From contig OX597828.1 in NCBI GenBank assembly GCA_951406725.2, forward strand, positions 20,770,001 to 20,834,000: DNA of 64,000 nucleotides. The letters are read 5' to 3'. Made by a program: the position numbers and the translations under genes. The notes beneath the pieces were generated by a model that worked only from the letters and a program-made list of their open reading frames with translations, was not told the DNA's origin and did no database searches. This document shows, piece after piece, positions 24,141 through 64,000 of the stretch. Each line of letters begins with the position of its first letter. The first letter of the stretch is position 1. The stretch is from Octopus vulgaris. Lineage: Eukaryota.

Positions 24141-24348
24141 CAGTTGTTTAAGGATGAGGAAAAACTGAAGGCTACTAGGGGAGATATATATATATTTTTT
24201 TTTATCTAGTTTCATCTCATGAGCTGAGGCCATGCTGGGGCACCGCCATTGAAAAAGTGTGTAAGACAGTGCCAGTGGTTTCAAGGTAGGAAATCTTCGA
24301 TGAGAGTTCAGAGTGAGCGAAGTAACCACGCGGCTAAGCCAACATTAT

Positions 24349-24654
24349 TTACATTATTGTATTATTTACATTTGATGAATATTTGTCCTCATTCTTGTTT
24401 GTTGTTACAACAACGTTTCGGCTGATAGGCAGTGACCTGAATAATAATGATAATAATAATAATATTAATAATATTAATAACATTGAAAAATACCTTGGTA
24501 ATGAGAACCCAGGTTCGAAATTTCCCCCAAGACACCTGATGAAGGCTGGAGGGTGTCTCAGCCGAAACATTGTGTTAACAACTAACAAGATGAGGACAAA
24601 TATCCATCAAATGTAAATAATGTACATAATTCTTCATCTCTTAAATATAGAACT
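24349..24654 (+). mobile_element. Family F copy, 5'-truncated, preceded by an inverted copy of its own 3' tail
   Basis: 24349-24426 is the reverse complement of about 24556-24628; hammerhead motif at 24531-24576. Confidence 0.75.
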
Positions 24655-36984: not shown

Positions 36985-37207
36985 ATTTCTTTATTGCCCA
37001 CAGGGGGCTTAATATAGAAGGGACAAACAAACGGATTAAGTCGATTACATCGACCCCAGTACACAACTGGTACTTATTTAATCGACCCCGAAAAGGATGA
37101 AAGCCAAAGTCAGCCTTGGTGGAATTTAAACTCAGAACATAGCGGTTGACGAAATACTGCTAAGCATTTCGCCTGGTGTGTTAATGATTCTGCCAGCTTG
37201 CCGCCTT
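36985..37207 (-). mobile_element. Family B SINE with target-site duplication (further copies at 39455-39669, 51675-51806, 58860-58975, 59250-59464)
   Basis: AAGTACA(A)ATATTGAT on both flanks. Confidence 0.85.
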
Positions 37208-37304
37208 AAGTACAATATTGATGTGGCCCAAAGTACAAGTGCTAATGGCCTAGATTCAGGGATAAAAATAAAGTACATTAAAGTACAAGTGTAGATGAAT
37301 CTTA

Positions 37305-37487
37305 TTTACATTTTACAAATATTTGTCCTCATCTTGTTTGTTGTTAACACAACGTTTCGGCTGATATACACTCCAGCCTTCATCAAGTGTCTTGGGGAAA
37401 ATTTCATACCTGGGTTCTCATTCCTAAGGTATTTTTCGATGTTATTATAATTATTATTATTGTTGTTGTTGGTGTTGTTGGTGGTGG

Positions 37488-37518
<31 letters not shown>

Positions 37519-37533
37519 ATTCAGGCCGCTGCC
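37305..37533 (-). mobile_element. Family F copy, 5'-truncated; hammerhead at 37346-37391 with C3U
   Basis: Reverse complement of the family F body and tail. Confidence 0.75.
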
Positions 37534-37586
37534 TCGGTCAACCAAAGCCTTGTGAGTGGATTTGGTAAACGGAAACTGAAAGAAGC

Positions 37587-37633
<47 letters not shown>

Positions 37634-37883
37634 TTGTGTGTCTGTGTTTGTCCCCCCAACATCGCTTGGCAACCAATGCTGGTGTGTTTACGTCCCCGTA
37701 ACTTAGCGGTTCGCCAAAAGAGACCGATAGAATAGGCACTAGGCTTACAAAGAATAAGTCCTGGGGTCGATGTGCTTGACTAAAGGCGGTGCCCCAGCAT
37801 GGCTGCAGTCAAGTGACTGAAACAAGTAAAGGAATAAAGGAAAAGGAATAATCAAAATAAGCAACAAGGATATCCAAGGTAGA

Positions 37884-37969: not shown

Positions 37970-38258
37970 ATATAGAATTTTTCAATTAAATGGACAATGC
38001 ACATTCTTATACTTATTTCATTTGCCAATATATATATATAATACACAGTGGGCTTCTTTCAGTTTCCATCAACCAAATCTACTTAAAAGGCTTTTGCTGA
38101 TAATGAGCTATAGTAGAAAACAGTTCCCCAAGTAGTAGGACTGAACTAGAAACCATGTGGTAGGGAAACCAGCTTCTTAACCACACAGCCATACCTGCAC
38201 CTACTGTACATAGGTGTGTATATGTTTGTGTGTATACATATATGTATATGTGGGTGTG

Positions 38259-39820: not shown

Positions 39821-40204
39821 CTCTTTTACTTGTCTCAGTCATTTGACTGCGGCCATGCTGGAGCACCGCCTTTAATCGAGCAAACTCGACCCCGGGACTT
39901 ATTCTTTTGTAAGCCCAGTACTTATTCTATCGGTCTCTTTTTGCCGAACCGCTAAGTAACGGGGACATAAACACACCAGCATCGGTTGTCAAACAATGCT
40001 AGGGGGACAAACACAGACACACATATACATATACATATATACGACAGGCTTCTTTCAGTTTCCGTCTACCAAATCCACTCACAAGGCTTTGGTCGGCCCG
40101 AGGCTATAGTAGAAGGCACTTGCCCAAGGTGCCACGCAGTGGGACTGAACCCGGAACCATGTGGTTAGTAAACAAGCTACTTACCACACAGCCACTCCTG
40201 CGCC
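39821..40204 (-). mobile_element. SINE family A, full length
   Basis: Reverse complement of the family A consensus. Confidence 0.9.
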
Positions 40205-44540: not shown

Positions 44541-46256
44541 AACAAAAGAGAACACAAATGACATTGGCTTAAGCAAATGCAAGTCTTCTGCAATAAATTC
44601 TTGCCCATCACTACTTTGGAGAGGAACTTACTTGTGCAGATCAAAGGTCTCATGTGACATAAGGGAACCTCAGATATGATAATCTATTGTAATGAGTACT
44701 AAAAGCCTAATTAGCTAATTAATAATAATTATGTGATGAGGTCAAGAAGTATAATATTAGTCTATGACTTATATTATTTCTGAATATGTTTTGTGTCAAG
44801 TAAGGGTAACAACACCAGCTGTGTTTCATTCTTATTCTTGTCTCATCAGCAAGACATATATTTCACTGAGCCTGTTGAAGCAGTGGTGAGAAAATTACAA
44901 GGTAAATGTATGCTACTGTACACACGTTTGTCATTAAACAGTAATTATTTCGAGAAAAAAATAATAACTCAGAGACACCATCCTTACGGATAAACAATAG
45001 CTAAGTTAAAGTATTTTACACAGTGCACATTAAAAAAAAGACCAAATTAGAAATAATTAGTGACAAAAACAATGATATTAGTCACAGACTATAATTATTA
45101 TTTTCTCTGTTAATTTATTCTGACAAGTAAAGAAGACAGTTCTGGATATGGTTCGTTCTTATCACGACCTCATCAGCAAGGCAGGAACTTAACTGTACTT
45201 GCCACAATAGTGATGACAGAATCATTAATTAAAGATGCAAGATAATACCAGTTCAGACCCAATAGATAGGTAGGTGAGTGAATGTGAGGGGGTGTCAGTT
45301 TGTTGGCATAGAAGATTGAGAAGAAAAGGCATAGTAGATGAGAATATGGTAGTCACATCTCATCTTCTTTGCCCACTTATTCATGGTTGGACCATGGGGG
45401 CAGAGTCCTCAAGCACGCCTTCCATTAGGTCCTATCAGAAACAATCTTTTCACCCCAAAAAAGGGTCCAGAAGGCAACAAAATTTAGTAATATTTAAAAA
45501 AATTAACGAAAAGTTTATAAGAATTATCTTCTTACAGATTTTCTCTGTCAATAAAAACTAAAGTTTTATAGCAAAAGAAAGTTTGAAGATCCAGAAAAGT
45601 TTAAGAAATAAGAAAAACTGAAATTTGAAGTTATTTTCAAAGAATAACAGGAAAAACAGTCACAGAAATGTTTGTGTAATAAAATGTTGAAGTTGTTTTA
45701 GGTGAAAATTTGTTTTCCTTTAAAAAATCTGTGGAATCAAAATGAAAATTAATTTAGAAGAAATACCTTTTGGAAATAATAAAAATGGTAAGAATAAAAA
45801 CCAGAGACTGTACAAAACTGAAAATTTTAAAGATGCCAGAGCTTATGGAAACGAAAAAAAAAAAGGGGCAAAAGTGATTTTAGAAAATAGAAAAATGATG
45901 GCAAGAAAATGGGTCAAGAACAAATCAGGCTCATGCATGAAATCTTAGAAAATTAATTTTTGCTGCTTATACAGAATTGGTTGTTGGAAACAGCTGACCA
46001 CTTTCAGTCACAATGTCTTTTATTTTTTTTTTTATATATTTTGACATTAATGAAACAAACAAAAAAACTAACAAAGAGTAATAAACAAACAAACAAACAC
46101 AGAAAGAAAATTGGTGATTAACCCAAAAAAAAAAAGAAAACACGGACACAAGGGCCATAAAATCTGTAAAGTAAAAGAACAAAACAAAGAATATAAAACA
46201 GAAAAAAGCAAAAAAAAACCAAAAAACAAACAACCCAACTTGGTTAATTTACTCAC

Positions 46257-46390
46257 ATTGACTTCTTTCAAATCTTTATTGGCAAGCTGATTCAAGGGAT
46301 CCAAGAAATTCTGTTTAACATTGTCCTCGAGGGCATATTTGATGTCTGCAAGATCTTTGAAGGCTTCCCCAGCTTCACCTAAGCAGGCTC
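46257..46390 (-). CDS. EndoA: Endophilin A internal exon (134 nt, phase 1-0): GACLGEAGEAFKDLADIKYALEDNVKQNFLDPLNQLANKDLKEVN
   Basis: attattag acceptor, gtgagt donor; VKQNFLDPL..KDLKE is BAR helix 2 of endophilin A. Confidence 0.97.
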
Positions 46391-46585
46391 CTAATAATGG
46401 ATAGGAGATTGAATTAAAAAAAAAGAAAAGAAAGAAAGCAAAGAGTTTATTCCGTTTCAGGGTTGGGCTTAGAAAAAGTGATTTCTTAGCAGAGAAAAAG
46501 CACATAAGAACTCTCTTAAAACATTCTGCTACTGAAATGATTAATTCAAAGAACCACCACCAGCCAACCATCACCACTATTACTA

Positions 46586-46938
46586 TTTCCAATATTAGGG
46601 TTACCATATTTGATTTCCAATATTAGGGTACCATATTTGATTTCCAATATTAGGGTACCATATCTGATTTCCAATATTAGGGTACCATATTTGATTTCCA
46701 ATATTAGGGTACCATATTTGATTTCCAGTATTAGGGTACCATATTTGATTTCCAATATTAGGGTACCATATTTGATTTCCAATATTAGGGTACCATATTT
46801 GATTTCCAATATTAGGGTACCATATTTGATTTCCAATATTAGGGTACCATATTTGATTTCCAATATTAGGGTACCATATTTGATTTCCAATATTAGGGTA
46901 CCATATTTGATTTCCAATATTAGGGTTACCATATTTGA
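46586..46938. repeat. Homogeneous 27-bp minisatellite, ~13 copies
   Basis: Unit TTTCCAATATTAGGGTACCATATTTGA. Confidence 0.95.
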
Positions 46939-55407: not shown

Positions 55408-55928
55408 CTAGCAATGCATCCCGGCATTGCCCAGGTGTTATGACCTCCAGTCCCATTGTATTATTTGTTCCTTTCTTATGGGCAAAATCAGCACAGCTGA
55501 TATATAGTGAAGTGGATTACTAGCATAACAGAAATTATTGTTTGTTTAAAAGTGAGAGGGGAGGGGGTAGAGTAAAATTTGCATGGGTTTGCATGAAAGT
55601 GCATTCTGTTCTTAAGAAGGGTCACAGGTTATGTATTGTTTCAACATATAAAAGGGGATTAATACAATTTTGCCCAGAAATCACATTTCCAAAATTTTAA
55701 TTTCCCCCATTCTCACCACCATTTCTTAATTTGTAAGTTTTTTTTTTACTATTTTTTTTACCCACATTACAAATCTGGGAAATATATATATTTTTTTAAG
55801 TTTAATTATTCATAAAGAAACACTCCCTACCCCTTCCCCCACATTGCCCATTCATCACCTACCCGCTTTCAAAAACCTAAAACCTCTCAATGTTTCACTT
55901 TCATCTGATGTCTCATGTATGCCCACGG

Positions 55929-56175
55929 GACTATGGCTTAGTGGTTAAGAGCGCAGGCTACTAACCCCAAGATTCCGAGTTCGATTCCAGGCAGTGACCT
56001 TAATAATAATGATAATAATAACAATATCAAAAAATACCTTAGGAATGAGAACCCAGGTTCGAAATTTCCCCAAGACACCTGATGAAGCCTGGAGGGCATA
56101 TCAGCTGAAACGCTATGTTAACAACAAACAAGATGAGGGGAAATATCTGCCAAATGTAAATAAAGTAAATAATGT
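55929..56175 (+). mobile_element. tRNA-headed SINE (family F) with hammerhead-bearing tail
   Basis: A box TGGCTTAGTGG, B box GTTCGATTCC, (AAT)n linker, then GACAC-CTGATGA..GAAAC; other copies at 24349-24654 and 37305-37533. Confidence 0.75.
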
Positions 56176-57144
56176 ATGCATAGAATTGTACTGAAATAGC
56201 AGATGTAAAAAATACCAGACCACCACCAGAAAACCTGACATGCTAGAAACAACAGGCTTTTTTTGAAAGTGGTGAGGTGATGGGTGGATGTTTGGGAAGG
56301 AGATTTTAGTGTTTCTTTAAGAAAAAAGGAAGAAGAAAATTCTTAAAGATTCGTACTCTCTGCTTTCCTCTTTGTGGATTATCAAGAGAAAAATTGGGGT
56401 AAGGAGGGAAAAAATTAAAATATTGAGAATGTGTTTTGGGGTGAAATCCCAAGTTATTTTATAGCTTTCTTTCGTTTGAAGCAGCAAAGTTGTCAACTTG
56501 ATCATATGGTCGATCATATGGGATCATGATTGTTAATTTCTGTAACAAAGTTTTTTATTTCTTTATGCTTTGAAGAGAGCAGAAATTGAAAGGGAGGAGA
56601 AAGTGAAAAGGCGACATTTACTTTGAAGTGAGAGTAGAAAAGTGTGTGGGTGTGTGTGTGCATGAGAGAGAGAGAGTGAATGAGTGAAGATGTGTTATCA
56701 TGTATGTATTTTTTTTAATGTATGTGTAAGTGGTACACACCCGCTCCCTCTCTCTCTCACACACACATGCATTATCTTTCATATACATGTTCATAAATAC
56801 ATATGTAGGCATCTTTTTTGTATGTATGTAAACATGTGCATGTGAGAGAGAGGGTGAGTGACTGTATTTCCTCATAACATATAGAGAAATGGGTATCTTT
56901 TAATGACTTTTTTGAGTTGTGGCTTATTTTAATACAATACATATGTGTATATTTTCATAACTGTTTGTCTAGGTAGAATTCTACACATGCATGAAACATT
57001 GGACAAAAGTGAAACATTAGAAACACATTGAAGTATTACCTGAAAATGACTTCAAAATTGTGCGACCCAACGTCATTTCTGAGATTATTTTAGTAGTAAA
57101 AAAGGGTTGTTGTGCCAAAAACATAGTTTATTTGATAGCCTTTA

Positions 57145-63357: not shown

Positions 63358-64000
63358 GGCGTGGCTGTGTGGTAAGATGTTTGCTTCCCAACCATGATTC
63401 CAGGTTCAGTCCTACAGTGTGGCACCTTGAGCGGGTGTCTTCTACTATAGCCCTGGGCCAACCAAAGACTTGTGAGTGGATTTGGAAGATGGAAACTGAA
63501 AAAAGCCTGTCAGACATCTGTGTGTTTGTGTGTGTGTGCGTCTTTGCTTCTGTGTCTTTCCCCCATCACTGCTTAACGACCGATGTAGGTTTGTTTACAT
63601 ACCCCCATAACTTAGCAGTTTTTGAAATGAAATCGACAGAATAAGTACCAGGCTTTGAAAAAATACAATAAATAAATAAATAAGGTGCAGGAGTGGCTGT
63701 GTGGTAAGTAGCTTGCTAACCAACCACATGATTCCGGGTTCAGTCCCACTGCGTGGCATCTTGGGCAAGTGTCTTCTGCTATAGTCCCGGGCCGACCAAT
63801 GCCTTGTGAGTGGATTTGGTAGACGGAAACTGAAAGAAGCCTGTCGTATATATGTAGATATATATATGTGTTTGTGTGTCTGTATTTGTCTCCCTAGCAT
63901 TGCTTGACAACCGATGCTGGTGTGTTTACGTCCCCGTTACTTAGCGGTTCGGCAAAAGAGACCGATAGAATAAGTACTGGGCTTACAAAGAATAGGTCCC
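63358..64000 (+). mobile_element. Two tandem family A SINEs (diverged 63358-63660; young 63684 to window end)
   Basis: Both match the family A consensus. Confidence 0.88.

Follow-up and report, generated by a model that had tools for sequence, protein, structure and literature searches.

Results

A tRNA-headed repeat with a minimal hammerhead in the window

The window, by which we mean the whole stretch of 64,000 nucleotides of Octopus vulgaris DNA that was analysed, holds three copies of a short repeat, shown below to be the terminal repeat (pLTR) of a Penelope-like element (PLE). The minus strand also holds an exon at 46071-46622 with a match to the BAR domain (PF03114, E 3e-08), presumably of an endophilin-like gene, and the three copies may lie in introns of this BAR-domain gene. 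Other abundant tRNA-type SINEs and a second short repeat are found at 37534-37700, 38120-38200, 40100-40200, 63680-63760 and 37040-37230, and one of these abuts the third copy head-to-head. The features of the three copies are as follows.

55921..55926, plus strand: 6-nt leader before tRNA position 1 (from the sequence, the survey of 5' ends and the fold)
55927..55999, plus strand: tRNA-derived head, with A box at 55934-55944 and B box at 55977-55988; acceptor and T stems decayed
56002..56022, plus strand: (AAT)n linker, its length varying between copies
Between the (AAT)n linker and the hammerhead of the 55.9-kb copy, plus strand: spacer
56045..56047, plus strand: ATG that opens an 838-codon ORF where the unit precedes the body in a tandem copy; no body lies 3' of the window copy
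56074..56119, plus strand: minimal type I hammerhead, decayed in this copy, overlapping N-terminal codons of the ORF; predicted cut after 56114
56120..56176, plus strand: part of the pLTR 3' of the ribozyme, 57 bases, ending at the short end class (unit ~250)
24428..24654, plus strand: second copy, 5'-truncated in the last head bases, with the long 3' end (~280)
24344..24427, minus strand: inverted arm of the second copy, unit 173-256, with the short end; a Penelope-type inverted 5' piece
37302..37533, minus strand: third copy, 5'-truncated in the last head bases, with the short 3' end (~237), abutting another SINE

The A/B-box head, the (AAT)n linker and the minimal hammerhead of the 55.9-kb copy were all present as the earlier note had described them, and so were the lesions of the individual ribozymes: a stem II mismatch, C11.1U, U16.1C and a stem I change at 56074, G16.2A at 24531 and C3U at 37346. 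The three tail copies are likewise real, but the head is found only at 55.9 kb, with the last 11-14 head bases retained in the other two. The 37.3-kb copy, which had been called the sense-strand copy, lies on the minus strand, and the inverted second arm of the 24.4-kb copy (24344-24427) had been missed. The start of the 55.9-kb copy, previously placed at 55929, lies 6-8 bases further upstream, at 55921. The G at this position is the first base of the leader, which forms a small hairpin with the next bases, and it is the hard upstream limit of short copies in the survey of 5' ends; it would be the transcription start. The hammerhead was also taken for the 3' end of the repeat, when in fact the unit extends 94 nt beyond the cut (cut after unit position 188, end at 282). 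A tail of ~35 nt is optional and absent from the 55.9-kb copy; the short end class, at unit ~250, would mark the first RT start site.

The hammerhead core motif occurs five times in the window against 1.0 expected, a number reached by none of 100 shuffles, and three of the five matches are the family copies. Singly, the three copies fold no better than shuffles (z -0.8, -1.6 and -2.2), as expected because they are decayed minimal motifs that need a dimer. Neither the head nor the ribozyme was called by Rfam and ARAGORN: ARAGORN found no tRNA in the 64-kb window, and the head scored merely 13.9 bits with Rfam, below threshold. The head is, therefore, a degenerate tRNA derivative and not a gene.

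Family size and head-tail linkage

In a genome search, each of the 40 scored candidates contained the unit almost in full; identity was 89-92%, leaving aside the copy in the window, and the unit length of 282 nt was derived from 30 of the candidates. Exact CpG-free 20-mers were counted 5148 times for the head (+30), 6569 times for the ribozyme (+152) and 11811 times for the tail (+197), with controls at 0. Per-copy match rates of these 20-mers were about 0.2-0.6 and of similar size across probes. Corrected accordingly, the counts give ~18,000 head, ~20,000 ribozyme and ~28,000 tail segments in the 2.8-Gb genome. A blind sample of 37 stretches (370 kb) held four loci, equivalent to ~30,000 genome-wide (range 8,000-78,000). 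The family is old, with copies ~5-6% diverged.

Linkage was followed in 69 head-anchored loci. They were taken from the top of the matches listed for one contig, all within the initial 48 Mb of a single chromosome, after removal of a duplicate and of a neighbouring match. The tail lies on the same strand in 57 of them (53 flagged by script plus four ORF-linked) and on an inverted arm in five, which bears out the linkage of head and tail beyond the window. It is absent from the remaining seven, which end in expanded (AAT)n or in flank and have no other shared body.

The unit is the terminal repeat of a Penelope-like element

Three of the 30 best full-unit loci have GIY-YIG-like C-terminal coding sequence directly upstream of the unit. 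In BLAST, 27 of 30 loci picked by this GIY-YIG coding stretch, one of them the query, extend into the head, whose first 9-16 bases follow the ORF end in the remaining three. Long copies have a 2.38-kb body. The pLTR stands directly before the ORF start in six of 21 long loci; in one of these, L153, it begins at head position 4. The majority body is one open frame; counted from an ATG at unit position 119, it has 838 codons and crosses both the ribozyme and the tandem junction. The ATG and the first ~55 codons, which span the hammerhead, come from the upstream pLTR. The unit thus follows the ORF stop and also precedes the ORF and supplies its ATG; therefore, it is the element's own pLTR, and the 55.9-kb copy is a decayed solo pLTR. 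Family members were also seen in the contigs of four runs, and the listed pieces bridge the body-head junction in three of these (X19, X20 and X9).

The RT part of the protein (P0001) matched RVT_1 with E 5.5e-10. The endonuclease part (P0002) matched no Pfam family, and Pfam GIY-YIG was weak on one of nine relatives, but P0002 resembles GIY-YIG clusters, with Atlas look-alike scores of 0.95-0.96. Together these indicate an RT with a putative C-terminal GIY-YIG endonuclease, the latter called from the motif and from Atlas look-alikes. The structure database gave matches to distant RTs only, including telomerase RT. The protein has the DKG motif and lacks the Neptune-type Cys linker, which is present in a control family (L037); by the DKG and Neptune-Nematis Cys linker criteria of PMC8557442, this points to the Penelope/Poseidon clade. 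Among 51 longer protein relatives, P0005 (847 aa, 53% identical) has the same ribozyme-overlapping N-terminus, and the tail is, therefore, native to the PLE lineage. The residue changes of P0005, when back-translated, would fit a compensated stem II. The N-termini of P0005 and of another relative, P0037, read like a translated hammerhead core, and the start codon of P0037, as judged from the protein, may be the AUG inside CUGAUGA, similar to that of the anole Poseidon element PAc.

A genome search with Pfam GIY-YIG returned other elements, mainly Neptune-type PLEs, and none of its 30 loci match the unit. This second PLE family (L037, L042 and others) has the Neptune-type Cys linker and intact 781-aa frames in many copies and is apparently young. 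No canonical hammerhead was found by a simple pattern in 30 loci from the Neptune-type search.

The earlier note had proposed a SINE that parasitises a separate Penelope-like element. An autonomous partner with RT, GIY-YIG and the shared Penelope-type tail does exist, as a Penelope/Poseidon-type ORF, but the complete unit, with its head, is the partner's own terminal repeat, and copies of both lengths are alike in age and variants. The parasite could still be upheld if an independent tRNA SINE had taken a Penelope tail and spread from solo masters, the ORF-linked head being a later capture. This would account for the ~9 in 10 heads without an ORF, and the linkage of head and tail (57 of 69 loci on the same strand plus five via an inverted arm), the A and B boxes, the lack of a T4 run and the target-site duplications of some copies are all compatible with it; solo copies could act as secondary masters. 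However, every ORF end examined leads into the same head. With a distant Poseidon-type protein as the query (a first look was stricter), all 30 loci belonged to the tRNA-headed family, and neither a headless partner nor a second Poseidon-type family was among those 30. Solo and ORF-linked copies are also of similar age, with non-CpG divergence of 5.0% (n = 49) and 6.5% (n = 19), respectively. In the small sample of 61 solo and 30 ORF-linked loci, no diagnostic site was found outside the anchor region and two deletion columns, and the N7 core variant is common to solo and ORF-linked units. The seven tail-less heads, moreover, share no other body. We regard an independent SINE as unlikely; the short copies are most likely mobilised by Penelope enzymes.

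The head is the start of most copies

The family head was aligned with 35 tRNA sequences of the same genome, among which only six isotypes were sampled in number, and the best alignment was to tRNA-Arg(TCG), with 49/75 identical positions (z 9.4). The head of another abundant SINE in the window matches about equally well (47-48/73). Divergence is 7.0% in the A box and 4.5% in the B box compared to 3.5-5.1% in the rest of the unit; the boxes are, thus, not better conserved, although a selection signal is not expected in the boxes of dead copies anyway. Both boxes are intact in 28 of the 69 head-anchored copies.

Counts of CpG-free 20-mers are flat in the body (794 at -150 and 850 at -30), rise sixfold to 5148 at +30 and then increase just 1.3-fold, to 6569 at +152. 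Eight of the 69 head-anchored loci come from longer templates, six being ORF-linked and two having 19-25 nt of body. The other 61 start at -6 to +6 (45 loci) or at +8 to +30 (16 loci, some of which are indel artefacts), and none start at -7 to -18. The base at the 5' limit is a G preceded by pyrimidines, and it lies 13 nt upstream of the A box. A purine start at this distance is the usual Pol III geometry. This arrangement suggests that transcription starts at this G, probably by Pol III.

Another possible explanation is that the head is an inert relic in RNA made by Pol II or by read-through transcription, and that 5' ends pile up because RT stalls or folds back at the junction of body and head. 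In the last 900 nt, no other local 40-nt fold is as strong as the hairpin at this junction (-11.6 to -13.4 kcal/mol), a short palindrome made of the first head bases persists at many junctions, and the only mapped Penelope promoter, that of D. virilis, is internal, TATA-less and LINE-like (PMC2377424). Stalling or fold-back could, indeed, make part of the count step. Nevertheless, the ends accumulate beyond the loop and have a sharp limit at the leader G, a purine at the distance from the A box given above, and the gap at -7 to -18 remains. In the 24 of the 69 loci that have no adjoining inverted arm, the short copies mostly begin at this head edge as well. Stalling would also require ~85% of templates to stop within 12 nt, yet counts are nearly flat over the 120 nt upstream. 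An inert head, thus, seems improbable to us, and we favour a Pol III start at the head edge. Where body and head meet (loci L061-L090), the final body bases and the first ten bases of the head make up an imperfect palindrome, possibly a relic of head capture.

The majority sense strand has no run of at least four T in 2377 + 282 nt, while the antisense strand has 31. Synonymous shuffling predicts 2.6 such runs (P 0.048) and base shuffling 3.95 (P 0.015), values that come from several run types examined; runs of at least five T are too rare to be informative (0.43 expected). A PLE family of equal T content has seven T4 runs in 1.8 kb, although it is Neptune-type and not of the same clade, and single copies of the octopus family have 0.49 T4 runs per kb. 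Since a TTTT terminator is absent from all 2.66 kb, Pol III could transcribe the element from end to end, and the T-run deficit is suggestive of this. It is conceivable, if rather doubtful, that the autonomous element is run wholly from its captured tRNA promoter, and that one uncapped RNA with the 838-codon ORF yields both full elements and the SINE-like family.

3' ends and insertion pattern

An inverted arm adjoins 45 of the 69 head-anchored loci, and 31 of 37 arm pairs combine one long with one short end. When all the family loci read were pooled (225 segments), 91 3' ends fell at 280-282, 106 at 230-259 and three at 180-199. The short ends lie within the loop of a 9-bp stem in the tail. 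At ~235-255 the tail also has a 9-nt repeat, whose number varies between copies with the ORF frame kept. PLE insertions have been described as having an inverted 5'-truncated copy and a one-sided tail of 30-40 nt (PMC8557442), and the inverted arms and one-sided ~35-nt tail of the octopus copies are these Penelope signatures. The octopus ends also agree with the behaviour of an anole Poseidon protein, which starts RT at two internal sites with a preference for ATT (PMC11167929). The short copies may derive either from the upstream pLTR of tandem copies or from other solo copies; past position 282 their match to the ORF start is weak, and AT-rich targets confound it. Three of five non-inverted copies with a script-located 3' end (10 printed) are flanked by direct repeats of 8-11 bp. 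At one locus (L159:760-1900), the upstream pLTR is itself preceded by endonuclease-coding sequence, joined in the same orientation, which may mean that the template was longer than the unit or was switched.

Hammerhead cleavage does not set the copy ends

The majority over ~225 segments is an intact minimal hammerhead, so the fold anticipated for the consensus is present. It has the features of the PLE minimal type described in PMC4209133, namely, a CUGANGA/GAAA core with an extra base after A9, a G10.1-C11.1 pair, a palindromic 15.2-16.2, a stem I of 4-5 bp and no helix III. The core is intact in 13 of the 69 head-anchored loci, the window copy not being one of them. Among non-CpG variants of the core, one alone is common, that at the free position N7 (36/226 segments).

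The earlier note had suggested that self-cleavage defines the RNA end. The 3' ends of copies, however, lie 40-95 nt beyond the cut, and ribozyme cleavage sets neither end of the copies; uncut RNA would then be the template. Some signs of cleavage are present, but they are weak. Internal 5' starts are somewhat enriched just past the cut, with eight of 70 at 190-199 compared to 2-5 in neighbouring bins. Across the cut site (unit 185-195), 32 of 185 copies are shorter, with mixed alleles, while shortening affects 1-6% of copies in windows away from the cut and 9-12% in neighbouring AAC-rich windows. These deletions could be due to slippage or could be cleavage scars, the two being confounded by short repeats.

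That the hammerhead processes the RNA, by a cut or by a cut and circularisation as in retrozymes, and so defines the inserted unit is very improbable: the intact family core with its variation at N7, the starts at 190-199, the frequent deletions around the cut site, the body sequence upstream of the upstream pLTR in L159 and a model in which a circle closed at the ribozyme would hold the whole ORF (PMC4209133) can be cited for it, but merely three of 225 3' ends fall at 180-199, the loci read contain inverted pairs and singles instead of head-to-tail arrays of the short unit, a cut at 188 would remove the head, which most copies keep, from a short RNA, and cleavage is dispensable for PAc in vitro (PMC11167929).

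Discussion

We think it likely that the repeat is the solo pLTR of a Penelope/Poseidon-type element with a tRNA-derived head, made by RT copying the first ~250-290 bases of an RNA that was probably started at the head by Pol III. The unit follows the ORF stop, precedes the ORF in tandems and gives it the ATG and the first ~55 codons, and the head is the start of most copies; the head edge would be a Pol III start 13 nt before the A box. By analogy with anole Poseidon, the protein would nick AT-rich DNA and RT would start internally on the RNA, from two positions (unit ~245 and 282) separated by ~35 nt. A start in the first pLTR would produce a short SINE-like copy, and one in the downstream pLTR a long 5'-truncated copy. 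The 3' end of the cDNA may then fold back or re-prime at microhomology, resulting in the inverted arm. Hammerhead cleavage sets neither end in this scheme, in which uncut RNA would serve as the template.

Ordinary tRNA SINEs consist of a tRNA head and a LINE-derived tail. The octopus family resembles them in its tRNA head, its length of ~280 nt and its tens of thousands of dispersed copies. It differs in having a partner that also holds the head, where a tRNA SINE would share just the 3' tail with a separate element, as well as in the lack of a 3' simple-repeat end and in the PLE insertion pattern.

Penelope/Poseidon PLEs (PMC11167929, PMC2377424, PMC8557442, PMC4209133) share with the octopus element an ORF of ~840 aa for RT and C-terminal GIY-YIG, pLTR-ORF-pLTR tandems, a pLTR whose minimal hammerhead lies at or close to the ORF start, inverted 5' copies, a one-sided tail of 30-40 nt and ends downstream of the cut. 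Unlike theirs, the octopus pLTR opens with an A/B-box head of tRNA origin and (AAT)n, solo copies account for ~9 in 10 heads, most of these copies start at the head, and the sense strand is without T4; the mapped Penelope promoter is, in contrast, TATA-less and LINE-like (PMC2377424).

Three other systems combine some of these parts. SMalpha and Sjalpha of Schistosoma (PMC6765202) are also short and non-coding, with a Pol III-type promoter followed by a hammerhead. SMalpha is, however, often tandem, its ribozyme frees monomers from multimers, and the review, in the part available to us, names no partner (PMC6765202). The octopus copies are dispersed or head-to-head, with a minimal PLE ribozyme that does not set their ends and a unit that belongs to an autonomous element. 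Animal non-LTR retrozymes (bioRxiv 10.64898/2026.07.22.740005, PMC7761336) are, likewise, non-coding derivatives of PLE pLTRs with type I hammerheads and have been proposed to be moved by PLE enzymes. They are defined by tandem units and circular RNA, with no mention of a tRNA head in the available text of these sources; in the octopus loci read, no head-to-tail arrays with a ribozyme-set unit like those of SMalpha and the retrozymes were found, and the ends lie 40-95 nt beyond the cut. The TRIMp3 elements Helenus, Ajax and Cassandra (PMC10886601) also have a small-RNA-derived Pol III promoter captured in the terminal repeat, a capture proposed to have occurred via SINE insertion. They are non-autonomous LTR elements with PBS and PPT, whereas the octopus PLE encodes its own RT and endonuclease and inserts in a PLE-like manner.

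The earlier note knew of no described class with this arrangement. This holds for a tRNA-headed pLTR, which was not found described for PLEs, but a Pol III promoter with a hammerhead is already known from SMalpha/Sjalpha (PMC6765202). In the accessible parts of the literature, neither a PLE with a tRNA-derived promoter in its pLTR nor a Penelope-mobilised tRNA SINE was found; the supplements of PMC13282606 and bioRxiv 10.64898/2026.07.22.740005 may hold the family. A recent octopus repeat annotation lists Penelope and SINE families, and the passages available from it do not mention ribozymes. What seems new here is a PLE terminal repeat with a tRNA-derived promoter that accounts for a SINE-like family; a Pol III promoter with a hammerhead, retrozymes derived from pLTRs and tRNA promoters in TRIMp3 repeats were known before.

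Repeat libraries may split this family into "SINE" and "Penelope" entries. Its ~18,000 head-bearing copies record the RNA 5' end and both RT start sites, and they make several PLE questions testable, such as the polymerase involved, the role of the ribozyme and the origin of the inverted arms. If Pol III reads the whole ORF, one may also ask how an uncapped retroelement RNA is translated. If the element is indeed run wholly from its tRNA promoter, a Penelope element would be its own SINE factory, with the short family arising via internal priming in the first repeat. Internal RT initiation by a PLE, together with a Pol III promoter in the terminal repeat, would provide a route to SINE-like families without a separate parasite.
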